Positions 1,669-55,479 of a DNA stretch of 64,000 nt are shown here, in pieces. Each line of letters starts with the position of its first letter. Position 1 is the stretch's first letter. The notes below the pieces were generated by a model. It was not told the origin of the DNA, did no database searches, and was given only the letters and a program-made list of their open reading frames with translations. Source of the stretch: Myxococcales bacterium. GTDB lineage: Bacteria > Myxococcota_A > Polyangia > Polyangiales > Ga0077539. A program made the translations under genes and the position numbers. Where the stretch lies: assembly GCA_016793325.1 (NCBI GenBank), contig JAEUKI010000056.1:4221-68220 (forward strand), in the 5' to 3' direction.

Positions 1669-2973
1669 ATGGGATCGATCGATACAAGCTGGCGCGCGCG
1701 CGCAGCGTCCGCGGCGGACGTCGTCGCGCTGATTCGTTCGCAGAACAACGTGTTCGTGCACGCCGCGGCGGCGACGCCGACCCCGCTCATCGAAGCGCTG
1801 TGCGCGCGCGCAGACCTCGCGCGCGTGCGGCTCTATCACTTGCATACGGCGGGAGCCGCGCCGTTCGCGGACCCCGCGGTGTGCGAGCGCATTCGATCGG
1901 TCTCGTTGTTTACGGGACCGGCGATGCGCAAGGCGGTCAACGCGGGGCTCGCGGACTTCGTTCCGGTGTTTCTGTCGGATATTCCTGGGCTGTTTCGCGA
2001 CGCGACGATTCCGCTCGACGTCGCGATGGTGCAGCTCTCGCCGCCGGACAAACACGGGCTCTGCACGCTCGGAACGTCCTGTGACGCGGCGCGCGCCGCG
2101 GTCGACTCGGCCAAGATCGTGATCGCCGAGATCAACGAGCGCATGCCGCGGACCCACGGAAACACGAGCGTTCCGCTGTCGCGCCTCGCCGCGTTCACCG
2201 TGACGAATCGGCCGCTGTACGAGTCGGAGCCCAACGCGATCGGGCCCGTCGAAGCGCGCATCGGCGAGATCATCGCGGGCCTCGTCGACGACGGGAGCAC
2301 GCTGCAGATGGGCATCGGCGCGATTCCCGACGCGGTGCTCGCCAACCTCGGAAACAAGCACGAGCTCGGCGTTCACACAGAGATGTTCTCGGATGGGCTG
2401 CTGCCGCTCATCGAGGGCGGCGTCGTCACCAACCGACGCAAAGAAGTGCACGCGGGTCGCACCACGACCGCGTTCGTGTGGGGCTCGAAGCGCCTCTACG
2501 ACTTCGTGGACGACAACTCGCTCGTCGAGTTTCACGGCTGCGATCGCACTAACGACTCGGCGCACATCCGTCGCAATCCTTCGGTCGTCGCGATCAACAG
2601 CGCGCTCCAGGTCGATCTCTCTGGGCAGGTGTGCGCGGATTCGCTCGGCTATCAGATCTATTCGGGCATCGGCGGACAGATGGATTTCATCCACGGCGCG
2701 GCGCTCTCGAAGGGAGGCAAGCCCATCATCGCGCTGCCCTCGACCGCCAAGGGAGGACAGGCGTCGAGGATCTCCGTGGCGTTGAGCGAAGGCGCGGGCG
2801 TCGTCACAACGCGCGGGCACGTGCACTGGGTCGTCACGGAGTTCGGCGCGGTGAACCTCCACGGCGCGACGCTGCGCGAGCGCGGCGAGAAGCTCGTCTC
2901 CATCGCGCACCCTGACTTTCGCGCAGAGCTCGCGAAGGCCCTGGCGAACGTCCGGCATTTCACGATGTCGTAA
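1669..2973 (+). CDS. Acetyl-CoA hydrolase/transferase family protein (4-hydroxybutyrate CoA-transferase-like)
   Basis: Internal start MGSIDTSW of ORF 1075..2973. Full-length similarity pattern to the Cat1/Cat2/ACH1 family (GIGAIPDAV, EMFSDGLL, INSALQVDLSGQV, GQMDF). Confidence 0.85.
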   Translation: MGSIDTSWRARAASAADVVALIRSQNNVFVHAAAATPTPLIEALCARADLARVRLYHLHTAGAAPFADPAVCERIRSVSLFTGPAMRKAVNAGLADFVPVFLSDIPGLFRDATIPLDVAMVQLSPPDKHGLCTLGTSCDAARAAVDSAKIVIAEINERMPRTHGNTSVPLSRLAAFTVTNRPLYESEPNAIGPVEARIGEIIAGLVDDGSTLQMGIGAIPDAVLANLGNKHELGVHTEMFSDGLLPLIEGGVVTNRRKEVHAGRTTTAFVWGSKRLYDFVDDNSLVEFHGCDRTNDSAHIRRNPSVVAINSALQVDLSGQVCADSLGYQIYSGIGGQMDFIHGAALSKGGKPIIALPSTAKGGQASRISVALSEGAGVVTTRGHVHWVVTEFGAVNLHGATLRERGEKLVSIAHPDFRAELAKALANVRHFTMS

Positions 2974-2993
2974 GTGTCGTACCGTCGGCCGCG

Positions 2994-4730
2994 ATGCTCC
3001 CTGCGCGTCCGAGAGTCTCGGTCAATCTTCGGCCCGGCGTGATCACGCCCGGAAGCGCGTTCGACGCGCTCGTTCGTCTCGATTCGCGCCGCGTGATCCC
3101 GGTGAAGCGCGTCGACTGTCGGCTCCGCGGCGAGGTGCTCGTCATGCAGGCCAACGGGATGTTCGCGACCCAGCGCATCGTCGAGCTCGCGGCGTCAGCG
3201 ACGCCGAAGACGCTGCCGGCTGGACCCTCGGAGCTGCGCGTGCGCTTCGCGATCCCGCCCAGCGCGCCGCCTTCGTATCGAGGAACGACGATTCGCGCCG
3301 CGTATACGCTCACGGTCTACGTGGATATTCCCTGGTGGATCGACCGCGAGAGCACGTTCGTGATCCCCGTCAGCGCGCCGCCAGCGTCGGTGACGGACCG
3401 GGGCGCGAAGTCGTTCGCGCGCGTTCAGGACTCGGGCCTTCGAGTCGAGTGCGCGCTCGATCGAACGGTCGTCGCGCCCGGCGGAGTCCTCGCGGGACGA
3501 CTCGCGTTCTTCGGCGTCGAAGCGGCAGGCCTCCGCGCCGTTCGGGTTCGACTTCGCTGCCTCGAGCGCTGGGGCGCCGGCACAATCGACGGTCCCAACT
3601 ACCTCGTCGAGATCCCGATCGAGCGCCAGGTCGACGGCGATGCGCACACGTTTCGCATGCGGATCCCCGAGGACGCGGTGCCCGCGTTCGATACGCCGAC
3701 GGGGTGCATGTGGTGGCAGCTCGACGTCGAGGGCGACACGAAGGGCCGAGCCACCGCGACGCTGCTCGATGTCCCGATCCAGGTCGTCGCGCCCGAGACG
3801 AGCGGGCTCGATTTTTTCTCGGAGCTCCCGCTCATCGGCGACCAGCGTCGCGCCGAGATGCTCGCGCGGATCGCGCGCCGAACGGGGCTGCGTCACGAGG
3901 TCGAGACCGATCGACTCGTTGGGCAATTCGGCGGCGTTTCGCTCTCGATCGAGCGCGTCGCCGCGACCGGTCACAACCGCGTCGAGCTGCGATGGCGCCC
4001 GCTCGGGATCGCTCTCTCCGTCGGCCCCGCGCGGTGGAACGACGCGATCTCGCGCTACGAGATCACCGTGGGGTTGCCGATGTTCGACGAGGCGTACCAG
4101 GTTCGCGGGCGAGAAGCGCGGCAGGTCCTCGCGGTCGTGACGCCGTTTGCGCACGCCGACGGGCTTCTTCACAGCCTTCGAAACTGCGCGATCCGCGACG
4201 ACGGAGCGTCATTGGTCGCTCCATCGCAGCCCGACGAAGAGTCGTTGATGCGGCTCGCGTACAGCGCAGCGAGCCTCGCGGAGCGAGTGCGCATCGGCAT
4301 CGAAGGGATGCCGCCGCCGCAGCACTTCGCGGAGCACGCGGATGCGTGGCGCTCGCTCGCGGGGCGGTTTCGTGGGCAATTTCGCCAGGGAGACTGCGCG
4401 ATGCACCGCCTCGAGCTCTTCAACGAACGGCTCGACGTCGAGCACGTGTGGGACGACGCGAGGGTGCGCGAGACCATCGTGCGAGCGCACTTCGACCCGC
4501 CGCTCGAAGCGCCGCCGGACCGATCGCGCCCCGAGTCCGTCCGCGCGGATTGGCGCGAGGCGCTCGACGCCCTCGACGCGCAGGGAGGTCGCTGGAGCGT
4601 GACGAAGACCGCGCTCGAAGTGCGAGTCGCGGCCGTGCGCGACGCGGTCGACGCCGAGCGCTGGATCGACGTCGTCGCGTCGACGGCCCGCACGCTTCAG
4701 GGCCGCCGCAACACAGGTCCATTTCGCTGA
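2994..4730 (+). CDS. Hypothetical protein (578 aa), two-domain, possibly arrestin-like/Spo0M-like
   Basis: Long ORF with a coherent, non-Arg-biased composition and no competing frame. No recognisable catalytic motif. Confidence 0.55.
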   Translation: MLPARPRVSVNLRPGVITPGSAFDALVRLDSRRVIPVKRVDCRLRGEVLVMQANGMFATQRIVELAASATPKTLPAGPSELRVRFAIPPSAPPSYRGTTIRAAYTLTVYVDIPWWIDRESTFVIPVSAPPASVTDRGAKSFARVQDSGLRVECALDRTVVAPGGVLAGRLAFFGVEAAGLRAVRVRLRCLERWGAGTIDGPNYLVEIPIERQVDGDAHTFRMRIPEDAVPAFDTPTGCMWWQLDVEGDTKGRATATLLDVPIQVVAPETSGLDFFSELPLIGDQRRAEMLARIARRTGLRHEVETDRLVGQFGGVSLSIERVAATGHNRVELRWRPLGIALSVGPARWNDAISRYEITVGLPMFDEAYQVRGREARQVLAVVTPFAHADGLLHSLRNCAIRDDGASLVAPSQPDEESLMRLAYSAASLAERVRIGIEGMPPPQHFAEHADAWRSLAGRFRGQFRQGDCAMHRLELFNERLDVEHVWDDARVRETIVRAHFDPPLEAPPDRSRPESVRADWREALDALDAQGGRWSVTKTALEVRVAAVRDAVDAERWIDVVASTARTLQGRRNTGPFR

Positions 4731-7940: not shown

Positions 7941-8799
7941 GAGTCGCTTCGGGGGCGCGCTCCTTCGCGGCTTCGCGCTGCGCGAGGATCTCCGCGAGTC
8001 GCTTCTTCGCGAAGCGCGTCATGGCTCCCACGCCGACGACGCTCGCGATCACGATTACGACCGAGCCCACCTTCGCGGCGACCGAAGGCGTCTGCTCTCC
8101 GCGCACGACGGCCGCGGCGCTCTGGATGATGCTCCCGAGGTACGCATGAAAACATGTGATCGGAAGCAAGCCGAGCCACGTCCCGAGCGCGAAGTGCCGA
8201 TAGCGCACCGGCGTCGTCGCCGCGGCGAACGAGAAGATGTTCTGCGGGATGACCGGTGTCATGCGCGCGAGCCAGACGGCGCGGAGGCCGTCGTCACGAA
8301 GCAGCTCGCCGAGGGCGTCCCACGTGGGATTTCCCTCGACGCGACGGCGAACGACGTTTTGCAGCACCGTGCGGCCGAGGCCGAACGCGACCGACGCCGC
8401 GAGCGTCCCCGCAGGCGACGCGACGAGCGCGCCGACGATGGGTCCGTACACGAAGCCCGCGAGCACATGAAACGGCGCCTTGGGCGCAGCCACCGCGCCG
8501 CCGAGGCCGTACACGAGGAGGTAGAGCGCGACGCCGCGCGCGCCGCTCGATCGCATATACTCGATCAACGCGAGCAGCGCCGCTTGCACCGCGGGCTGAC
8601 GGAGCGCGATGAACGGCGCGAGGAGAAACAGTGCGAGGCCGAGCGTCGCGAGCGGCCTTCGCGTGAGCGCGATCCACACGGGCGCGAGGGTTCGTCGGAT
8701 CCAACCGGAGTTCAAAGGTCGGCGCGAGTGTACTCGAAGCGTCTCGAGAACCGACGTACGCTCTCGTTGTCGTAGCGCCCACCGAGCGGCGAGATGCAC
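7918..8799 (-). CDS. TVP38/TMEM64 (DedA-related) family membrane protein; start codon uncertain
   Basis: Multi-TM profile with family-typical GFVYGPIVGALVASPAGTLAASVAFGLGR and ARMTPVIPQNIFSFAAATT segments. Confidence 0.65.
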   Translation of the reverse strand: MHLAARWALRQRERTSVLETLRVHSRRPLNSGWIRRTLAPVWIALTRRPLATLGLALFLLAPFIALRQPAVQAALLALIEYMRSSGARGVALYLLVYGLGGAVAAPKAPFHVLAGFVYGPIVGALVASPAGTLAASVAFGLGRTVLQNVVRRRVEGNPTWDALGELLRDDGLRAVWLARMTPVIPQNIFSFAAATTPVRYRHFALGTWLGLLPITCFHAYLGSIIQSAAAVVRGEQTPSVAAKVGSVVIVIASVVGVGAMTRFAKKRLAEILAQREAAKERAPEATPTSEPTG

Positions 8800-9777: not shown

Positions 9778-10658
9778 GCTCGCGCGCGACTCGCTCGCTG
9801 ACCGCGTTGGTGTTGGCCCTGACCGTCGTTTCTTCGGCGCCCGACGCGAGCGCCGGCGCGTGGCTGCCTGCGCCGGGGAACGGCTACTTGAAATTGTGGG
9901 TCAAGTATCTCCCGGGCTTCTGGTTCACCGCGGGCGACGGGCAGCGCTACGACTACGGCGCGTATCACGAGCTCTTCGTCAACGCGTACTTCGAGGTCGG
10001 GCTCGTCGACGCGCTCGCGCTGTGGGTGCACGCGCCGATGGTGCAAGCTTTCGGGCTCGAGGACACGCGCGCGAGAGCGATGCGGTGGCACGTGACGCCC
10101 GGCGATCCGACGGTGGGGCTCAGGCTGAAGGTCGCGCAGGTGGGGCGTGCGTCGTTCGCGCTCGACGCGAGCCTGCGCGGACCTGTCGCGCCGTCGCAAG
10201 AAGTGCAGCCTGTGTACTCGTCGATGGGGCCCGACTTTCGCCAGGTGGGCGCGCTGCGGATCGGCAACGGATCGACGGACGCGGCGCTCACGTTCTCGAT
10301 GGGCTACGCGGCCGAGCGCTTCTACGTGAGCGGGTCGTTCGGCGCGATGTTTCGCTCGAACGGCTATGATCCCGCGGGCACGATGACGGTCGAAGGCGGC
10401 GGGCGCATCGCGCGAGGACGCGTCGGGCTGCGCAGTCGCGTGACGGCGTTTCTCTCGCTCCCCGTGGGAACCGCCCCGCGCCACGAGAGCCCGAGCGGGA
10501 TGGGCAACGGAACGCGCTACTGGGGCTTCGCGCTCGAAGCCGACGTTCGCGTCGCTGCGCGCTGGGACGTCGGCGCCTCGTTCGAGGGCGGGATCGGACC
10601 GCTGCTTCGACAGACGGGCGGCCCGGTGATCAACGTGTTCGCCGCGACGTCGTTCTGA
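9774..10658 (+). CDS. Secreted hypothetical protein (possible beta-barrel)
   Basis: Signal peptide SLTALVLALTVVSSAPDASAGA. Alternating hydrophobic pattern. C-terminal ...FAATSF. Start overlaps the upstream stop (operon). Confidence 0.6.
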   Translation: MSSRATRSLTALVLALTVVSSAPDASAGAWLPAPGNGYLKLWVKYLPGFWFTAGDGQRYDYGAYHELFVNAYFEVGLVDALALWVHAPMVQAFGLEDTRARAMRWHVTPGDPTVGLRLKVAQVGRASFALDASLRGPVAPSQEVQPVYSSMGPDFRQVGALRIGNGSTDAALTFSMGYAAERFYVSGSFGAMFRSNGYDPAGTMTVEGGGRIARGRVGLRSRVTAFLSLPVGTAPRHESPSGMGNGTRYWGFALEADVRVAARWDVGASFEGGIGPLLRQTGGPVINVFAATSF

Positions 10659-11425
10659 TGGCTCGCTTCACCGAGACGCTCGAAGCCCCGCGGAGCATCG
10701 CGCCAATCCACGAGCCCCCGCCGTCTGCGGTCGAGCTCTCGTCGTCGCTGCTCGAGCGCGCCAAGCGCTGCGACGGAACGCGCGCGTCTCTCGACGCGGT
10801 CGCGCACGAGGCATCATTTCTGCGGTCGATCGAGATTCCTCGCGGAGATCGCGCGCGGCTCGCGTTTTGGCTCAACGTCTACAACGCCCTCACCCGGCAC
10901 GCGGTCTACGCGTACGAAGCGCGCGGGAGCCTGTTGTCGCATCGGGCGATCTTCGAGCGCGCGGCGTACACCGTCGCGGGTCACCGCTGCTCGCTCGACG
11001 ACATCGAGCACGGAATTCTCCGAAAAAACGCGCGCAAACCGCTCGCCATCGCGCGTCCGTTTTCGTCGGACGACCCGAGGATCGCGTGGGGCCCGTCGAG
11101 CCTCGACCCGAAGGTTCACTTCGCGTTGAATTGTGGTGCCAAGAGTTGCCCCCCGGTCCGCGCGTACCGCGAAGAGACCGTCGAGCGTGAGCTGCGACTC
11201 GCGTCGACGGACTACTTCGCGAGCGAGTGCGTCGTCGATCGGCGCAAGCTCCGCGTCGAGCTGCCGTTCTTGATGCTCTTGTACTGGGGCGACTTCGGCG
11301 GGCGCGACGGCCGACTTTCGCACGCGCTGGCGCACCTCGAGCGCAGCGACGCGCTGTGGCTCGCCGAACACGCAGCGCGCGTGAAGCTTCGCTACCGCGG
11401 CTACGACTGGACGATCGTGCGCTGA
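10658..11425 (+). CDS. DUF547 domain protein
   Basis: Motif LAFWLNVYNALT and FALNCGAKSCP characteristic of DUF547. TGATG overlap with the upstream gene. Confidence 0.7.
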   Translation: MARFTETLEAPRSIAPIHEPPPSAVELSSSLLERAKRCDGTRASLDAVAHEASFLRSIEIPRGDRARLAFWLNVYNALTRHAVYAYEARGSLLSHRAIFERAAYTVAGHRCSLDDIEHGILRKNARKPLAIARPFSSDDPRIAWGPSSLDPKVHFALNCGAKSCPPVRAYREETVERELRLASTDYFASECVVDRRKLRVELPFLMLLYWGDFGGRDGRLSHALAHLERSDALWLAEHAARVKLRYRGYDWTIVR

Positions 11426-12486
11426 GCGCCGGGCCTGATGAGGGCCATCGTCGTTCGGATCATCGTTGGGAGCTCTTCGGTGGCGACCGTTCGAAACCCG
11501 AGTCGCTCGTAGAAGCGCATCGCGTCCCGAGTCGCGAGCTCGACGCGCTTGGCGCCTCGGACCGCGGGGTGATCGAGCAGCGCGTTCACGAGCGCAGCGC
11601 CGACGCCGCGCGATCGAAGGTCCGCGCGCACCGCGACGTCGCCGAGGTACGCGTACTTCACGCCGTCGCTCACAGCACGGGCGGTCGCGACCACCGCGCC
11701 CGACGCGTCGCGCGCGAGCATCCACGCGCTCGAACGACGGTGCGCGTCGCGGATGGCGTCGTCGTCGAAGCGCGACTTGTTCCAATATTCGTCGCGCAAG
11801 AGCGGGAGCGCCTCGTCGAGCTCGCTCGGCTCTGCGTAGACGTGGAGCGTGACGCCGTCCGGCCCGCGAAGAAACGAAGGACGATCCACCGCTGGATTCG
11901 CACGCAACACGAGCTCGAGCGCGCGCGCGTCCCCGGGCGCTCCCCGCTCCCAGAGCTTCGCGACGATGGTCTCGATGTACTGCGCGGTGCGGTTCTGCCC
12001 GAGCTTCCACTTGCCGTCGAGCACCGCGAGCGGAAGGGCCCAGATCGCGATGCTTGCGACCGGCTTTCGATAGCGCTCGTCTGTGTGCGTGATCGGCGCG
12101 TGACCACCCTCGGGCTGAAACTTCTCCATCAACCCTTGCAGCGCGCGCGCCTTGCGCGCCGGATCCTCGACGAGCTCGAGCGTCCCGTGCGCTTGAACGC
12201 TCACGAAGAGCGACGTCGCAGGGCACGCCATCGTCGCGTCCGTCCAGTAGCTCGGGATGTCCGCGAGCAGCTGCTCGTACACGACCACGGCTTCGCGCCC
12301 GACGAGCGTCGTCTTCTCGCCCACCGGTGATCCGTGAAAACACAGCGCGTCGTCCACGACCACGCCGTGGACCGCGCGCACCACGGGAGCGCCGTCCGGC
12401 GTCGTGCTCGCGAGGTGAACGTACGGCGCGCTCATCAACAATCGCAGCGCGTCCTCGCGCGACGAACGAAGCATCTCTCTACGCAT
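11401..12486 (-). CDS. Fusion: PNPOx-like FMN-binding split-barrel domain (NimA/pyridoxamine-5'-phosphate-oxidase family) + C-terminal GNAT acetyltransferase
   Basis: Start MRREMLRSS (internal M92 of ORF 11401..12759). N-terminal half has a PNPOx-like pattern (APYVHLASTTPDGAPVVRAVHGVVVDD...CFHGS). C-terminal RSRGVGAALVNALLDH...RFYERLGF is a GNAT motif. Confidence 0.7.
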   Translation of the reverse strand: MRREMLRSSREDALRLLMSAPYVHLASTTPDGAPVVRAVHGVVVDDALCFHGSPVGEKTTLVGREAVVVYEQLLADIPSYWTDATMACPATSLFVSVQAHGTLELVEDPARKARALQGLMEKFQPEGGHAPITHTDERYRKPVASIAIWALPLAVLDGKWKLGQNRTAQYIETIVAKLWERGAPGDARALELVLRANPAVDRPSFLRGPDGVTLHVYAEPSELDEALPLLRDEYWNKSRFDDDAIRDAHRRSSAWMLARDASGAVVATARAVSDGVKYAYLGDVAVRADLRSRGVGAALVNALLDHPAVRGAKRVELATRDAMRFYERLGFRTVATEELPTMIRTTMALIRPGAQRTIVQS

Positions 12487-12546
12487 GGGTTGCTCTTCGA
12501 CCTCCAGCGCTATGGAACATGCGTCGAGACCTGGTCCATCGTCTCG

Positions 12547-12580
12547 TACCAGTTTCGCGATTTCTGATAGACCAGTACCA
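12547..12580. promoter_or_regulatory. Candidate MocR-family operator: direct repeats TACCA(G/T) spaced 29 bp, in the divergent promoter between the PNPOx-GNAT gene and the MocR gene
   Basis: cgTACCAGtttcgcgatttctgatagaccagTACCATcg. GabR/MocR regulators are known to bind ATACCA-type direct repeats with ~3 helical-turn spacing. Confidence 0.35.
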
Positions 12581-12592
12581 TCGTCGGATTCG

Positions 12593-14074
12593 ATGGCTCG
12601 ATGGACGCTCCAGGTCGCGCTCGACGACGATCCCCAGCCGCTCACCACGCGGATCGCGCAGGCGATCGTGCAGGACGTGCGGCGTGGAAGGCTTCGGCCC
12701 GGCGATGTCCTTCCCGGTTCACGAACGCTCGCGGCGTCGCTCGGGGTGCATCGCAACACGGTGCTCGCGGCGTTCGACGCGCTCCGGGCCGAGGGCTGGA
12801 TCGAAGCGGACTCCGCGCGCGAGACGCGCGTCGCGACGTCGCTGCCCGAGACCCGCGCGAAGCGGTTCAGCGGGCGAGCGTCGCCGCGCGCGTCGTTGCC
12901 CGAGCAGCCAGGGTTCGCGCTCGGACCCCAGCCCCCGTCGCGCGATCGTGAAGACTACCCAGGCACGATCGCGCTGTTCGGCGGACAGCCAGATCTCGGG
13001 CTATTTCCAGTCGAAGCGTACGCGAGGGCGCACCGCCGAGCGCTTCGTACGCAGCGAAAGACGCTGCTCGACTACGGCTCGCCCCGCGGTCACGCAGCGC
13101 TGCGCCGCGCCGTCGCGGAGATGCTCTCGTCCCTCCGCGCCGTCGCCGCGCGCGAAGAGAACGTGCTCGTCACGCGCGGCAGTCAACAAGCGCTCGACCT
13201 GATCTCTCGCGCGCTGATCGCGCCGGGCGACGTCGTCGCGGTCGAGGCGATGGGCTACAGCCCCTCGTGGCAAGCGCTTCGCGCAGCGGGCGCGAAGCTC
13301 GAGCCGATCGCGGTCGACGCGTCGGGGCTCGACGTCGACGCGCTCGCGGCGGTGTGCGAGCGCGCCCGCGTTCGCGCGGTGTACGTCACGCCGCACCATC
13401 AGTACCCGACGACGGTCACGCTGTCCGCGGGGCGACGGATGGCGCTCCTCGCGCTGGCCAAGCGCCACTCGTTCGCGATCATCGAGGACGACTACGACCA
13501 CGAGTTTCACTACGAAGGACGCCCGGTGTTGCCGCTCGCGAGCGCGGACCCGGACGGGCACGTCGTGTACATCGCGACGCTCTCGAAGATGCTCGCGCCG
13601 GGGCTTCGCGTGGGCTTCGTGGTGGCCTCGCGCGCGGTGATCGAAGCGCTCGCGCGGTGGCGAGTGTACGCGGATCGACAAGGCGACATGGTGATGGAGG
13701 CCGCGCTCGCAGAGCTCATCGAGGACGGTGAGCTCGCGCGACACGCGCGACGCGCGCGGCTCGCGTACCTCGAGCGGCGTGACGTGTTCGTCGAAGCGCT
13801 GCGGCGGGAGCTGGGAGGGGCGCTCGCGTTCGAGGTTCCCCGGGGAGGACTCGCGTTGTGGGCGCGGCTCGAAGCGCGAGGCGCGGACGGGTTCTGCGAG
13901 CGCGCGTTGTCGAACGGCGTGCTCGTGCAGAGGACCCGCACGATGGTGTTCGACGGCGGCGATCGACCGTGGGTCCGCCTCGGTTTTGCGGGCAACGACG
14001 GCGCTCGGCTCGAGGAAGCCGCGAAGCGACTGCGCGGCGCGATGCGAGACGCAAAGCCGTCGAAGGCGCGGTAG
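12593..14074 (+). CDS. MocR/GabR-family transcriptional regulator (GntR HTH + aminotransferase-like PLP domain)
   Basis: Start MARWTLQ. N-terminal wHTH (LPGSRTLAASLGVHRNTVLAAFDALRAEGW). C-terminal fold-type I aminotransferase domain with PLP-lysine region TLSKMLAPGLRVGFVV. Confidence 0.85.
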   Translation: MARWTLQVALDDDPQPLTTRIAQAIVQDVRRGRLRPGDVLPGSRTLAASLGVHRNTVLAAFDALRAEGWIEADSARETRVATSLPETRAKRFSGRASPRASLPEQPGFALGPQPPSRDREDYPGTIALFGGQPDLGLFPVEAYARAHRRALRTQRKTLLDYGSPRGHAALRRAVAEMLSSLRAVAAREENVLVTRGSQQALDLISRALIAPGDVVAVEAMGYSPSWQALRAAGAKLEPIAVDASGLDVDALAAVCERARVRAVYVTPHHQYPTTVTLSAGRRMALLALAKRHSFAIIEDDYDHEFHYEGRPVLPLASADPDGHVVYIATLSKMLAPGLRVGFVVASRAVIEALARWRVYADRQGDMVMEAALAELIEDGELARHARRARLAYLERRDVFVEALRRELGGALAFEVPRGGLALWARLEARGADGFCERALSNGVLVQRTRTMVFDGGDRPWVRLGFAGNDGARLEEAAKRLRGAMRDAKPSKAR

Positions 14075-14077
14075 CGG

Positions 14078-16387
14078 TCAGCTCTCGGCGGGCTTGGTCG
14101 CGGGCTCTTCGGGCGGGTCGCTGTCGGGCGCGCGGTCTCCCTCGTCGGAGACCTCTGCGTGCCCGAGGTCGAGCGCGTGATAGAGCTTCGCGAGCGGAGC
14201 TGGCGCCCACCAATTCAAGTCGCCGAACAGCCGCATGGTCGCGGGCACGATGAGCACGCGAACGATGGTGGCGTCGAGCGCGACCGCGAGGGCCATTCCG
14301 ACTCCGACCGCCTTGAGGATCACGACGTCTGCGAGCGCGAACGCAGAGAAGACAGCCACCATGATGGCGGCGGCGCTCGTGACGAGGCGCGCGGAGCGCT
14401 CGAGCCCCTCGGCGACGGCCTTCGTGTTGTCCTTGCTGCGCAGATACTCCTCTTGCATCCGCGTGAGCATCAGCACCTCGTAGTCCATCGAGAGGCCGAA
14501 CACCGCGCAGAACAAGATCACAGGGAGCACCGGCTCGACGGGCTGCGGCTCGAATCGAAGGATCGTTCGGAGGTGCCCGTCCTCGAAGATCCACACGAGC
14601 GCGCCGAAGCTCGCGGTGAGGCTCAAGAGGTTCATGAGGACGGCCTTGATCGGGAGGATCACGGAGCCGAGCAACACGAAGAGCACGAGGGCCGTCATGA
14701 TCATGACGAAGCCGATCGCCATCGGGCTCTTGGACAGGACGTACGCGGTTGTGTCGATGTCGAGCGCGGTGGGTCCTGCGACCCACGACTCGCCGGGCCC
14801 GGACGGGCGCATCGCGCGCGCGGCGCGAACGACGGATCGAGCCGTCTCCGAGTGTGAATCGCCGCGGGTGATCAAGCTGAAGATGATCACGCGCTCGGTC
14901 GAGACGTACTTGCGAGCCTCTTCGAGGAGCGTCGGTCGAAACATGTCGGGCAAGCCGTACACGTTGACGTAGCCGTCTGCGTCGAGCGTCGGGTCGAGGT
15001 CGACGTAGCTCTCGACCCGCGCGACGCCGGGGATCGCCGCGAGGCGCCGCGAGTACGCGAAGCTCGCGCGAACGCGGGCCTCGTCCGTGGTGCTCGCGCC
15101 CTCGGGGAGCCGCTGGACCACGGTGACGCGATTGGCGCCGATGTCTGGAAAATCACGGACGAGCGTGTCGTACCCGCGCCGCGCTTCGACGTGCGGCGGC
15201 AGGACCGTGACGCTCGCGGCCGCCATTTGCATGCGCAGAAACGGGACGCCCGCGGCGAGCGTGAGCGCGAGCGTCGGCGCGAGCACGAGCAGCGGGCGAC
15301 GCATGACCCATCGCGCGATACGGCGCCAGAAGCCTCCCGCGTCGCTCGAGTTTTCGCGGGTCTTCACGATGCGAAGCGCGTTGACCCTCGGGCCGAGCAG
15401 CGACAAGAGCGCGGGCAGCAGCGTGAGCGCGAACAGCACGGCGAGCGCGACGACGAGCGCTCCTGCGACGCCCATCGATGCGAGGAAGGTCCCTTTGTAA
15501 AACAGCAGCCCCGACATCCCGATCGCGACCGCGACGCCCGAGAACGCGACGGCGCGGCCTGCGGTGGCGAGCGTTCGACTGAGCGCTTGATCTGTTGGAT
15601 GGCCGAGCGCGAGCTCGTCTCGAAAGCGATTGACGATGAAGAGCGCGTAGTCGATCGCGACGCCGAGGCCGACGAGCGACGTCACGTTGAGGCTGTACTG
15701 CGTGACGTCCATCGAGCGGGACGTGAGAAAGACGCCTGCCATTCCTGCGACGACCGCGAGGCCGCCGACGCCCACAGGGAGCGACGCGGCGGCGATCGAG
15801 CCGAACACGAGCAAGAGCACGAGCAGCGCGAGCGGCGCAGAGACGAGCTCTCCCTTGAAGAGGTCTTTCTCGAGCGTTCGATCGAGGTCTTCTTTGTACG
15901 CGAGGTTGCCGGTCAGCGTGAGCTCGACCGCGGGATCGGGCCGCAAACGCGCGCGCATTTCGCGAAACGCGGTCTGGGCCGAGCGCATGTCTCCGCGCAC
16001 CGACGCTTGCAAGACGACCGCGCGACTGTCCCGCGAACGCAGGATCGCCGCGACCGTCGGCGCCAAGTCGAACGGGACGACGAGCTGCGCGACGCGAGGG
16101 TCGTTCTTGATGGGCGCGATCGATCGGTCGAGCGCCGAGCGAAATCCCTCGTCGTCGACGGTCCCTCGTCGGGCGCGCGCGATGACGAGAAACGACGTCG
16201 AGCCCGGCCGCCCGAGCTCGCGCTCGAGCACCGCTTGCCCACGGTCCGCTTCGGTCATCGGAAAATTCGCCGGCGCGAGCACCCCGCCCCGCGCGAGCAC
16301 GCCGATCGACAACGCCAACACCACCGCGCTCAGCGCGAAGATCAGCGTTCGATAGCGATGAATGATCAAACCCCAGCGGGCCAGCAT
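14078..16387 (-). CDS. MMPL-family (RND superfamily) membrane transporter
   Basis: 769 aa, two 6-TM bundles each followed by a periplasmic domain. Typical MMPL motifs (GVAIDYALFIVNRFRDE, GLSMDYEVLMLTRMQEE). Confidence 0.85.
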   Translation of the reverse strand: MLARWGLIIHRYRTLIFALSAVVLALSIGVLARGGVLAPANFPMTEADRGQAVLERELGRPGSTSFLVIARARRGTVDDEGFRSALDRSIAPIKNDPRVAQLVVPFDLAPTVAAILRSRDSRAVVLQASVRGDMRSAQTAFREMRARLRPDPAVELTLTGNLAYKEDLDRTLEKDLFKGELVSAPLALLVLLLVFGSIAAASLPVGVGGLAVVAGMAGVFLTSRSMDVTQYSLNVTSLVGLGVAIDYALFIVNRFRDELALGHPTDQALSRTLATAGRAVAFSGVAVAIGMSGLLFYKGTFLASMGVAGALVVALAVLFALTLLPALLSLLGPRVNALRIVKTRENSSDAGGFWRRIARWVMRRPLLVLAPTLALTLAAGVPFLRMQMAAASVTVLPPHVEARRGYDTLVRDFPDIGANRVTVVQRLPEGASTTDEARVRASFAYSRRLAAIPGVARVESYVDLDPTLDADGYVNVYGLPDMFRPTLLEEARKYVSTERVIIFSLITRGDSHSETARSVVRAARAMRPSGPGESWVAGPTALDIDTTAYVLSKSPMAIGFVMIMTALVLFVLLGSVILPIKAVLMNLLSLTASFGALVWIFEDGHLRTILRFEPQPVEPVLPVILFCAVFGLSMDYEVLMLTRMQEEYLRSKDNTKAVAEGLERSARLVTSAAAIMVAVFSAFALADVVILKAVGVGMALAVALDATIVRVLIVPATMRLFGDLNWWAPAPLAKLYHALDLGHAEVSDEGDRAPDSDPPEEPATKPAES

Positions 16388-52644: not shown

Positions 52645-53607
52645 ATGACGTATTGGGGTCCGGGAACTGTCCCGCCCGGCTACATGCTCGCCCCCGACGG
52701 AACGCTCGTTCCCGTCGTTCCAGGCGCACCGGTTCAGCACCATCCCGTGCCGCCCGCCGCGCCGTATGGCGCCGTGGTCGCCGTGCCCTCGCCTGTGCCG
52801 TACGGCGCGGTGCCCTACGGGTATGTGCCGCAGCCGGCGCCTGTCCCCGTGATGGTGCCGCAGCCGATGCCGCAGATGGTGGCGGTGCAGCCCGTGGTCG
52901 TCGCGACCCACGTCGTGGGCAACGTGGCCGTCGCGCAAGGGCACGCATACGCGGGCTACGTGCAGCAAACCGCGTACGTTCAAGCGCCGATCGCGCAGCC
53001 CATGCAACCGGTCCCGACGCACGCGACCGCGCCCGGAGCGCCGCAGGCGTACGCCCCAGGGTGGACGCACCCGCAGCCCGCTCAACACGGCGGATCCCAG
53101 GACAACGCCCTCGCGATCGCGCGCGAAGACAGCCTTTCGGCGCGCGATCGATACCAGGGCGAAGCTGGCTCCGTGGGAGCGCTCTCGCTCGCCACGAGCG
53201 GATTGATCCTCGCGACGGCGCTCGCGACGGTGACGTTCTTCGTCGTTCCCGTGGGCGCCGTGCTCGCGTCCGCGGCGGTCGCGAGCGGCGTGACGGGGGG
53301 GCTCGGATTGTGGCTTCTTCGTCAGCGAAAGAAGCTCCGCGGCAAGGTCGACCTCGACCCAGAGATTCAAGTGCGGCTCCTCGACCTCGCGACGAAGAAG
53401 CGCGGACGATTGACGGTCACCACGACGGCACAAGGTCTCGGGCTCACCCTCGATGAAGCAGAACGCGCCCTCCAGGCGATGGCGGCATCGCACTACGTCG
53501 ACGTCGAGCTCGACCCAGACGTGGGCGTGGTGACGTACGTGTTTCGTGAGCTCGTCCCCACCCCGCCGCAGCTGCCCGCATCTACCACCGAGGCTCCCAC
53601 TCGATGA
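52645..53607 (+). CDS. Pro-rich membrane protein (N-terminal PxP/Y-rich region, TM, C-terminal globular domain)
   Basis: Start MTYWGPG. Low-complexity VP/PY-rich N-terminus. TM LILATALATVTFFVVPVGAVLASAAVASGV. ATGA-coupled to the downstream TM2 gene. Confidence 0.55.
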   Translation: MTYWGPGTVPPGYMLAPDGTLVPVVPGAPVQHHPVPPAAPYGAVVAVPSPVPYGAVPYGYVPQPAPVPVMVPQPMPQMVAVQPVVVATHVVGNVAVAQGHAYAGYVQQTAYVQAPIAQPMQPVPTHATAPGAPQAYAPGWTHPQPAQHGGSQDNALAIAREDSLSARDRYQGEAGSVGALSLATSGLILATALATVTFFVVPVGAVLASAAVASGVTGGLGLWLLRQRKKLRGKVDLDPEIQVRLLDLATKKRGRLTVTTTAQGLGLTLDEAERALQAMAASHYVDVELDPDVGVVTYVFRELVPTPPQLPASTTEAPTR

Positions 53608-54554
53608 ACAACGACGACCACAGCACCGGGACGTCGAACACCATGACTGCTGAAGCGAGCGATCCGCTGGCGGACGCGCTTCGCAACGACAAGCCGCCGC
53701 CCGCTGCCGCGCACTCGACCCCGCCGCCGAGCGAGCGCTCTTCGCCGCCCGCGCCGCTCGCGCCCGTGGGCGCGTGGCCGCCGCCGAACCCGACCGCCGC
53801 CAACGCGCCAGTGTATGCGCAGCCGAACGCGCACGACGCGCCCCGCGCGCCGCAGCCGACGCCCGTGTACGCACACCCCGCGTACGGCGCTCCGGCCGCT
53901 GCGTTTCCGCAAGCGCCGGCGCCCGATCCCTACAAACCACCGCAGTACCAGCAGCCGTATCCACCGCCGCCCGCGCAGCACGCGCCGAGCCCGTACGGCC
54001 ACTACCAACAGCCTCAGTACCAGCACCCACAATATCAACAGCCGCAGTACCCACCGCAGCCGCAGTATCCGCAGCCTCAGTACGCACCGCAGCCTCCGTA
54101 CGCGCAGCCATACGCGCAGCCATACGCGCAGCCGCAACCAGCGCCGGTCGCGCCGCAGTTGCTGCCGTACGCGCCCGCGCCGATGCCTGCGGCGTACACA
54201 GCGCCCGCGCAGACGTACGCGATCGTTCCGGCGCCGCAGATGATGCCAATGGTCGTGCAGCAGCCGATGATGATGGTCGCGCCGGCGCCGCAGATGGTTC
54301 AGTACGGGCAGGTCGCGCAGACGGGCATCGTCCGCGTCGGAAACGCCAACCGCCTCGTGTTCGCGGTGCTCGCGTTTCTTCTGGGATTCATCGGCTTGCA
54401 CAAGTTTTATCAGGGCAAGCCTGTGTGGGGATTGATCTACCTGCTCACGTCGTGGACGGGCGTTCCTGCGATCGTGTCGGTGATCGAAGGGCTCGTGGCG
54501 CTGTTCCAGACGGACGCTGCGTTCGACGCGGACAACAACTTGCGCGCGATCTGA
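53604..54554 (+). CDS. TM2-domain membrane protein with long Pro/Gln/Tyr-rich (PQY repeat) N-terminus
   Basis: ~200 aa of QPQYQ/PYAQPYAQ repeats, then TM2 domain (RLVFAVLAFLLGFIGLHKFYQGKPVWGLIYLLTSWTGVPAIVSVIEGLVALF). Confidence 0.75.
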   Translation: MNNDDHSTGTSNTMTAEASDPLADALRNDKPPPAAAHSTPPPSERSSPPAPLAPVGAWPPPNPTAANAPVYAQPNAHDAPRAPQPTPVYAHPAYGAPAAAFPQAPAPDPYKPPQYQQPYPPPPAQHAPSPYGHYQQPQYQHPQYQQPQYPPQPQYPQPQYAPQPPYAQPYAQPYAQPQPAPVAPQLLPYAPAPMPAAYTAPAQTYAIVPAPQMMPMVVQQPMMMVAPAPQMVQYGQVAQTGIVRVGNANRLVFAVLAFLLGFIGLHKFYQGKPVWGLIYLLTSWTGVPAIVSVIEGLVALFQTDAAFDADNNLRAI

Positions 54555-54627
54555 TCCGCGGATTTCACGCGCGCATCGCGGCAGGAATTCGTCCCGCTCG
54601 CTCGGCCGCGCTACGATCGCGATCGCT

Positions 54628-55479
54628 ATGCGACCCGCTTCGTTACTGCGTTGCGCGCGAACGATCGCGCCGCTCGTCTTCGTTCACTGCGGACCCATGG
54701 GCGAGCCTCCGCCTCCGCCGTGTCCGATGGAGCCGTGCAGCAACGGAACGCCACGGTTCAACCCCAATCCCAGCCCTACGACGGGCGATGGCTCCGTGCC
54801 GACCGACAGCGCCGTTGGCGAAGCAGGCGTGTCCGACGCGTCGCGCTCCGATGGTGGTCCGACGGTGAGCGTTCGAGGCACGGTCGGAGAAGCGATCGCG
54901 ATGCCGCGCACGCGCATGATGGACACGCGCGTCGCGTCGGGTTGGACCGTGCAATCGCTGCTCGATCCCGCGCGCACCACCACGAGCTCGGCGACGGGCA
55001 CGTTCGCGCTCGACGTCGTCTACGACAGCGCTGGCGTCGCGCCCATTCGCGCAGAGACGCTCACGCCGCCGCGGCAGTGCGCGATCGGCCACGGGCGTTC
55101 GGGCAGCGCCGACGTGGCTGTGGTCGCGTTCGAGCAATCGCGGCTCCAGGAGCTCCTCGCGCCGTCCGGCGTCGGGATCGACATCGGAAAAGCGCAGCTC
55201 ATCGTCGAAGTCGAAGACAGCCTCCGCGCGCGCGTGAGCAACGTGAGCGTCACGATCACGCCCGCGACGGTCGAGGGCGTCGCCTACGACATCGAGAACA
55301 CGCGATTCGCGCTCGGAATGGCGACGAGCACGCAAGGGACAGCGCTGGTCACCAACATTGATTTCGTGGGTCCCTCCGCGAAGGTGGACCTCGTGCTCCG
55401 GCGCGACGGTCGGACGCGCGCGATCCCGATCTACTTCGCCCGCGGCTGCACGACGTTCGTCACGGCGCTCGCGCCGTAG
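54628..55479 (+). CDS. Hypothetical secreted protein
   Basis: Signal-like N-terminus ARTIAPLVFVHCG, Pro-rich linker, beta-rich body. Convergent 3' overlap with the phnC-like gene, so one of the two ends may be mis-set. Confidence 0.45.
   Translation: MRPASLLRCARTIAPLVFVHCGPMGEPPPPPCPMEPCSNGTPRFNPNPSPTTGDGSVPTDSAVGEAGVSDASRSDGGPTVSVRGTVGEAIAMPRTRMMDTRVASGWTVQSLLDPARTTTSSATGTFALDVVYDSAGVAPIRAETLTPPRQCAIGHGRSGSADVAVVAFEQSRLQELLAPSGVGIDIGKAQLIVEVEDSLRARVSNVSVTITPATVEGVAYDIENTRFALGMATSTQGTALVTNIDFVGPSAKVDLVLRRDGRTRAIPIYFARGCTTFVTALAP

Follow-up and report, generated by a model that had tools for sequence, protein, structure and literature searches.

We describe a predicted regulatory cassette of two genes in a 64-kb stretch of DNA from a Myxococcales bacterium (68.5% GC), hereafter the window. 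A regulator gene of the MocR type, mocR (12593..14074, plus strand), stands back to back with a gene on the minus strand (11401..12486) that encodes a split beta-barrel domain fused to a GNAT acetyltransferase, and the 106-bp intergenic spacer (12487..12592) carries a predicted three-box operator at 12531..12575. Most likely, MocR acts on this operator to control mocR itself as well as the divergent fusion gene. The explanation as a whole, a two-gene cassette in which a regulator that binds pyridoxal 5'-phosphate (PLP) acts on three boxes, with a barrel of the PaiB/KtzT/Nim type joined to a GNAT domain as the target, appears likely to us. The cassette would be a conserved two-gene switch in soil myxobacteria, and its regulatory picture is solid, its biochemistry less so.

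The comparison set consists of the best 80 of 284 relatives of the fusion in a species-level genome collection, nearly all of them from Myxococcota together with a few from Acidobacteriota. About 4 kb on each side of the fusion gene was fetched for every locus, and the regulator orthologues were located by tblastn, the starts of mocR in these loci being estimates from the alignments. The orthologue lies directly divergent from the fusion gene in 69 of the 80 loci. When all open reading frames (ORFs) were clustered, the only conserved genes were the fusion gene, present in 80 loci, and mocR, present in 73. No other conserved neighbour was found in the 80 loci, DUF547 and MMPL genes included, and no pdx gene is among the conserved neighbours.

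The operator

The operator is 45 bp long, reads CTGGTC-N10-TACCAG-N17-GACCAG on the plus strand and is the sole match to this arrangement in the 64-kb window. Box 1 (CTGGTC, 12531..12536) is inverted relative to the other two. Box 2 (TACCAG, 12547..12552) follows at a distance of 16 bp, and box 3 (GACCAG, 12570..12575, within TAGACCAGT) repeats box 2 directly, 23 bp further on. The consensus of the family is CTGGTCC-atcn-AaAAG-gtCCAGTT-tcGAnAttTCtGc-TAGACCAG-t, in which box 2 takes the form KWCCAG with AAAG before it.

The three boxes were present in all 69 spacers that could be extracted from loci with an immediately divergent mocR, and all of them score at least 12 out of 18. A score of 15 or more was reached by 61 of the 69 real spacers, as compared to 7 of 1380 shuffled ones. 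Position by position, in 54 aligned orthologous spacers, the CC and the G of box 2 and the CCA of box 3 are invariant. The DNA between the boxes is rich in AT, the two inter-box spacers having 46% and 36% GC as compared to 69% for the loci overall. The operator, with its geometry and its AT-rich inter-box DNA, is kept throughout Myxococcota and reaches into Acidobacteriota.

The usual spacings are 16/23 bp (54 spacers) and 15/24 bp (12 spacers), so that boxes 1 and 3 stand 39 bp apart in 66 of the 69. In the 15/24 loci (Sorangium and others, e.g. L009, L010, L012, L013, and L036) it is box 2 that has shifted by one base, with the 39 bp kept. Since box 2 shifts while the outer distance stays, the geometric constraint seems to be set by boxes 1 and 3, the outer inverted pair.

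The initial annotation had proposed another pair of repeats as the shared operator, TACCAG at 12547-12552 and TACCAT at 12576-12581 (plus strand), 29 bp apart, and both are present as described. TACCA is rare in the window, with 16 copies on the plus strand in 64 kb, and there is no other non-coding cluster, so the pair was unlikely to be a matter of chance. A second TACCA cluster at about 53.9–54.0 kb was considered as an operator and rejected, as it is coding sequence for QYQ repeats; the region (about 53,900–54,150, in ORFs 53604..54554 and 53774..54868, plus strand) encodes a repeat rich in Pro, Gln, and Tyr, with CAG TAC CAG read as QYQ. The orthologous spacers separate the two members of the proposed pair. 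TACCAG is conserved and is box 2, but TACCAT lies outside the conserved operator and is found 29 bp from box 2 in only one of the 54 aligned spacers, that of the window itself; in L001, the closest relative, these bases read TATGGT. The conserved partners of TACCAG are GACCAG, direct at 23 bp, and CTGGTC, inverted at 16 bp. Thus, a conserved set of repeated boxes does lie between the two genes, but not as that pair.

Box 1 is found 44 nt from the ATG of the fusion gene in the window, and 19–24 nt from it in 67 of 76 loci. Box 3 is 17 nt from the ATG of mocR in the window, and 0–6 nt from the estimated start in most loci. With one box this close to each start, both promoters must overlap the operator. 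The gap between box 3 and the start of mocR (12576..12592 in the window) leaves a leader or a Shine-Dalgarno sequence little space, and since box 3 abuts the estimated start, the mocR mRNA may be leaderless.

The overlap with the region where both promoters must lie also opens for another reading, that the conserved spacer is an RNA leader element or only a core promoter, and not an operator. An invariant A in the second inter-box spacer and an invariant G before box 2 speak for it. We find this hardly credible, as the spacer has no Rfam match and an ordinary RNA folding energy (z = 0.35), and as there are only about 20 nt between box 1 and the ATG. Furthermore, the boxes show the symmetry of repeats and a half-site of the GntR type, and the residues of the regulator expected to read them are invariant. 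It must be held against the operator reading, which we prefer, that a scan of 12350-12750 for sigma-70 promoters and terminators found none.

The MocR regulator

The product of mocR has a GntR-type winged helix-turn-helix (residues 18–80, 12644..12832; PF00392, 52.6 bits with a cut-off of 27) followed by an aminotransferase-like effector domain of fold-type I (residues 134–480, 12992..14032; PF00155, 116.5 bits). Pfam therefore bears out the domain content given to both proteins in the initial annotation, GntR and Aminotran_1_2 for the regulator and Pyridox_ox_2 and Acetyltransf_1 for the fusion. Near full-length matches were obtained to GabR (4N0B) and to Bacillus clausii PdxR (7PQ9; E 1.3e-36). 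The candidate PLP lysine is K332 (codon 13586-13588), within TLSKMLAPGLRVG, which falls on K312 of GabR in the alignment, and IIEDDYDHEF aligns with IIEDDYDSEF of GabR. All 67 orthologues that cover these positions have K332 and the EDDYDxE motif unchanged. The assignment to the MocR/GabR type was thus right, including the conserved PLP-binding lysine that had been named as its check, and the regulator is a member of the MocR/GabR subfamily that is predicted to bind PLP. In the helix-turn-helix, R44 and the R54-N55-T56 of the recognition helix are invariant in the 66 orthologues that cover these positions, and residue 53 is H in 54 of them and N in 12.

The NCBIfam equivalog model for PdxR, NF052282, gives the regulator 352.1 bits with a cut-off of 320, and the models for rhizopine MocR, GabR, and PtsJ all stay below their own cut-offs. 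The PdxR model names mocR a PdxR though no pdxST or pdxK gene is nearby. A PdxR is expected to adjoin or control genes for PLP synthesis or salvage, and here the sole conserved neighbour in the 80 loci is the fusion gene. It may be that the model over-names MocR regulators of this group.

If the name is taken at its word, the regulator would be a true PdxR with remote pdxST or pdxK targets, and the fusion gene a mere neighbour. The equivalog score is what favours this, and loci in which the two genes have come apart tell against it. Ten loci without an adjoining mocR still have the operator upstream of the fusion gene, box 1 standing about 20 nt from the ATG. In Archangium (L033, L061, L077, and L079) mocR is now found downstream and on the same strand; in L035 and L062 it is more than 2 kb upstream; and in L018, L024, L025, and L057 it is absent from the flanks. 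The operator tracks the fusion gene rather than mocR when the two are separated. The constant distance between box 1 and the fusion ATG and the lack of conserved pdx genes nearby point in the same direction, and we consider a true PdxR very improbable. A regulator whose target is the fusion gene is the reading that we retain.

The fusion protein

The N-terminal domain of the fusion (residues 1–200, 11887..12486) is a split beta-barrel of the PaiB/KtzT/Nim type, and the GNAT acetyltransferase domain follows at about residues 215–351 (11434..11844). In Pfam, residues 9–156 match Pyridox_ox_2 (PF12900; 71.3 bits with a cut-off of 27) and residues 233–331 match Acetyltransf_1 (55.9 bits). FMN_bind_2 (PF04299, the PaiB family) passes marginally, 25.3 bits as compared to 22.4. 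The AlphaFold models are confident, with a predicted local distance difference test score of 91.9 for the full fusion and 90.6 for the N-terminal domain alone, and show the GNAT fold in the C-terminal domain and the PaiB-type fold, including its C-terminal helices, in the N-terminal one. The pyrophosphate loop for acetyl-CoA (R/Q-x-x-G-x-G/A) is R291-S-R-G294-V-G296-A, with R291, G294, and G296 at least 90% conserved, and the C-terminal domain is predicted to be a RimI-like, acetyl-CoA-dependent N-acetyltransferase.

The fusion had been called unusual, which it is not. One search, capped at 8000 candidates, gave at least 407 matches, and all 120 of those listed are 332–490 residues long and have both domains. 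A profile search with the N-terminal domain gave at least 873 clusters at 90% identity, and nearly all of the 120 listed are fusions of about 350 residues. At 50% identity, 193 clusters are related to the fusion with E ≤1e-30. The combination of split barrel and GNAT is thus common.

Structure comparison places the N-terminal domain closest to proteins that bind heme, or heme together with a flavin. The best scores were those of PaiB (2OL5; 17.0) and KtzT with heme (9JN4; 16.5), followed by Anf3 (6RK0; 14.8) and MSMEG_4975 (4YBN; 14.5), both with flavin adenine dinucleotide plus heme, and by a Nim-type protein (2FG9; 14.7). The PdxH enzymes are not the closest structural neighbours, Escherichia coli PdxH (1G76) scoring 9.7 and the human PNPO (8QYT) 7.7.

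Three residues of the barrel stand out, H51 (codon 12334-12336), T91 (codon 12214-12216), and K161 (codon 12004-12006). H51 is invariant in the fusions and also in unfused relatives; for T91 and K161 this holds in the fusions. In alignments of hidden Markov models, K161 (in GKxKLGQN) falls on Lys184 of LnzB, and T91/S92 (in ACPAT) on Thr113 of LnzB. H51 (in FHGxPxGEK) falls on the histidine of LYLHSGPEGGK in 2FG9, which is His50 of BtNimB. LnzB, KtzT, and PaiB carry heme, the iron being ligated by His72 and T113/K184 forming a catalytic pair (PMC12603108), and the corresponding Nim histidine (H50 of BtNimB, H55 of CdNimB, and H71 of DrNimA) is a heme ligand required for nitro-reduction (PMC10338468). 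From these likenesses, the N-terminal domain probably binds heme through His51, and it possibly binds a flavin too.

Several observations weigh against a heme site. The match of H51 comes from the Nim-type alignment only; the PaiB and LnzB alignments begin after this region, and His72 of LnzB can be related to it by offset only. K161 varies in the unfused relatives, where it is K159 that is invariant. Pfam and the Joint Genome Institute both label the barrel as binding flavin mononucleotide (FMN), and the well-scoring Anf3 and MSMEG_4975 bind a flavin as well as heme.

The description that we started from was different. It read the barrel as an FMN-binding domain like that of pyridoxine/pyridoxamine phosphate oxidase (PNPOx), and on that reading the locus would serve vitamin B6 salvage, in which pyridoxine phosphate (PNP) or pyridoxamine phosphate would be oxidised to PLP, with the GNAT domain attached and with feedback from PLP through MocR. 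The regulator passes the PdxR cut-off, as described above, and members of COG3467 and COG2808 in such regulons have been named pdxO and pdxO2, "putative PNP oxidases" (PMC5320631). At the level of the superfamily this holds, as the fold is within the PNPOx split-barrel superfamily. Beyond that level it does not, since PNPOx_N (PF01243) reaches 19.6 bits with a cut-off of 28.1 and no PNPOx C-terminal domain was matched in the Pfam scan. The conserved residues are those that have been given heme roles in Nim, PaiB, and KtzT, and no pdx gene is a conserved neighbour. Judged by its sequence, the N-terminal domain is probably not a genuine PNP oxidase, and B6 salvage is an unlikely role for the cassette.

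It is also conceivable that the barrel is not a catalyst at all, but a heme or redox sensor that gates the attached GNAT domain. PaiB was first described as a regulator. It binds heme but showed no KtzT-type activity (PMC12603108). The full-length model shows a confident and fixed arrangement of the two domains (predicted template modelling score 0.87), and the barrel is attached to GNAT in nearly all the listed profile matches. However, the Thr/Lys "catalytic pair" is kept, and the barrel also occurs alone. Unfused homologues of about 200 residues keep the invariant residues, namely H51, the cysteine of ACPAT, QPEGG, and K159. At least three of those examined have a divergent MocR (L081, L083, and L084), and no GNAT was seen in those loci, which argues that the barrel has a function of its own. 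A sensor role is therefore, in our view, quite unlikely, and a catalytic barrel is the reading we carry further.

Two of the three unfused loci also have a related operator. L081, with a homologue of 202 residues, has CTGGCA-N10-TCACAG-N17-GACCAG, which is the 16/23-bp geometry of the fusion loci. L083 (CP048286.1, a genome of 7.05 Mb; 2373-4639) has AGAAG-ATCCAA-N18-GACCAC, like boxes 2 and 3, with a spacer of low GC. The presence of MocR beside unfused barrels in the three loci, with a related operator in two, implies that the module of MocR, operator, and barrel predates the fusion to GNAT, and from these sequences we take the module to be the older.

Proposed mechanism

By analogy with PdxR of B. 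clausii (PMC10450172), a head-to-tail dimer of MocR would bind in one of two modes, on the direct boxes 2 and 3 (23 bp) or on the outer, inverted boxes 1 and 3 (39 bp). In the latter mode, the bendable AT-rich DNA would wrap over the core of the aminotransferase-like domain. Which mode is used, and thereby whether the two overlapping promoters are active, would depend on the ligand state at the PLP site. PLP itself may be the effector, or an amino compound that forms an external aldimine. A model of the PdxR type fits the locus because the 39-bp outer distance is kept, because box 2 has a freedom of one base, and because the spacers are AT-rich.

For the chemistry our preference, on inference only, is that a small nitrogen-containing molecule would first undergo a redox step dependent on heme or flavin, and that the resulting amine would then be N-acetylated. 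A KtzT-type role as piperazate synthase was considered and rejected, as there is no N-hydroxylase or biosynthetic cluster with the cassette; piperazate-type N-N chemistry is unlikely because the N-hydroxylase partner is missing. A more specific version is a bifunctional enzyme in which heme-dependent N-O or N-N redox chemistry (e.g. from a nitro or N-hydroxy compound to the amine) is coupled to acetylation by the GNAT domain, with an amine sensed by MocR as the inducer. We offer this version tentatively and regard it as rather unlikely in its full form. If it were true, the cassette would be a widespread module for detoxification or resistance in predatory soil bacteria, and the pdxO and pdxO2 of many MocR regulons would be heme enzymes and not PNP oxidases.

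The locus gives an exact operator, with its boxes, spacing, and coordinates, for a group of MocR regulators from a phylum without any previously studied one. The fusion can be seen as "Rosetta-stone" evidence for a common pathway of the split-barrel and RimI-type proteins, which recur together in MocR regulons. The likeness of the barrel further suggests that proteins annotated as "putative PNP oxidases" resemble the heme-binding PaiB, KtzT, and Nim proteins more, and if the heme reading is confirmed, a sizeable class of predicted vitamin B6 regulons would be reinterpreted. Apart from the operator, the fusion, and the likeness to heme proteins, this is an ordinary and well-behaved MocR cassette.

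Gene starts and neighbouring genes

The ORF list bears out the two divergent genes with starts at 12486 (minus strand) and 12593 (plus strand), and corrects some of the figures first given for them. The spacer is 106 bp and not 107. The complete minus-strand ORF, 11401..12759, is 452 residues, so this number is the length of the whole ORF and not of an upstream extension, which is 91 residues. Homologues align only from the ATG at 12486, which gives a fusion product of 361 residues, and its MRRE start is common to many relatives. It had been predicted that automatic callers would include the extension, but they have not. According to a protein cluster look-up, from which the public lengths and starts were taken, MBL8681925.1 starts at ATG 12474, four codons further in, and has 357 residues. 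The public call for the regulator, MBL8681926.1 ("PLP-dependent aminotransferase family protein"), has the same 493 residues as our mocR product. Both public entries belong to a metagenome-assembled genome of the Myxococcales.

On the other side of the fusion gene, a DUF547 gene (10658..11425, plus strand) converges on it, the two sharing 25 bp at the 3' end of the fusion gene (11401-11425). Of the 80 related loci only L008 was seen to have a DUF547 gene, which lies about 3.3 kb downstream of its fusion gene. An MMPL-family transporter gene (14078..16387, minus strand) is convergent with mocR and ends 3 bp past its stop codon; it adjoins mocR in the closest relatives only (L002, L004, and L008). 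In two Sorangium loci (L016, 5310-6488; L026, 5059-6426) the fusion gene has, just downstream and on the opposite strand, another MocR paralogue, with about 37% identity.

Comparison with known systems

A search of the literature on MocR in myxobacteria, and on PaiA/PaiB with heme and acetyltransferase, gave nothing on this fusion. The barrel has its nearest relatives in PaiB and KtzT/LnzB (2OL5, 9VYC, 9JN4, and 9KEA), with which it shares the lysine of GKxKLxQN and the threonine of ACPAT, equivalent to Lys184 and Thr113 of LnzB. The identity is low, 17–19%, the N-terminal half scores higher on the Pyridox_ox_2 and Nim models, and the barrel is here fused to GNAT. In Bacillus, paiB adjoins the GNAT gene paiA. 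The Nim proteins (NimA and Clostridioides difficile NimB; 2FG9 and 1W3O) are alike in their membership of Pyridox_ox_2, to which the barrel scores 71 bits, and in the histidine of FHGxxxGxK, which is the heme ligand His50 of BtNimB and His55 of CdNimB. They differ in lacking both the PaiB-type C-terminal helices and the GNAT domain, and no MocR regulator has been reported for them.

GabR of Bacillus subtilis (4N0B) resembles the regulator in its domain architecture, in the pair K312/K332, and in IIEDDYDSEF/IIEDDYDHEF. It controls gabTD, however, and responds to gamma-aminobutyric acid (GABA) together with PLP, and its repeats have a longer spacing and its partner genes are others. GABA forms an external aldimine in GabR, and the GabR operator reportedly consists of direct repeats with an ACCA core.

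The PdxR of B. clausii (7PQ9) is a full-length MocR homologue, divergent from its target, with a PLP lysine, and its recognition residues Arg43 and Gln53-Asn54-Thr55 compare with R44 and H53-R54-N55-T56 here. Its operator has two direct and one inverted motif within 48 bp; apo PdxR prefers the direct pair and activates transcription, and the PLP form closes on the inverted pair, bending the AT-rich centre over the aminotransferase-like ridge (PMC10450172, PMC5320631). In the number, orientation, and total length of the motifs (about 48 bp as compared to 45 bp) and in the AT-rich, bendable centre the two operators are alike. The target of PdxR is instead the PLP synthase pdxST, and the ligand-dependent switch between motif pairs has been demonstrated for PdxR only.

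The closest match to the cassette as a whole is found in the PdxW, PdxW2, and PdxQ regulons predicted in 2016, in which a MocR controls COG3467 (pdxO) or COG2808/PaiB (pdxO2) together with RimI/RimL (PMC5320631). It was Suvorova and Rodionov who named pdxO and pdxO2 putative PNP oxidases, and in their set the combination in which two direct boxes accompany one inverted box is the commonest type of MocR operator, found in 32% of the regulons (PMC5320631). Here too, a MocR gene stands beside a COG3467/COG2808 split barrel and a RimI-type GNAT, with an operator of several boxes. The differences are that the split barrel and the RimI-like protein form one polypeptide, that we read the barrel as PaiB/KtzT/Nim-like and probably heme-binding and not as a PNP oxidase, and that the Myxococcota and Acidobacteriota lie outside the 2016 study, whose set had deltaproteobacterial PdxQ groups and no myxobacteria (PMC5320631). 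By its gene content and box arrangement the locus belongs with the PdxW/PdxQ-type regulons, and what is new is the phylum and the fusion of the two targets.

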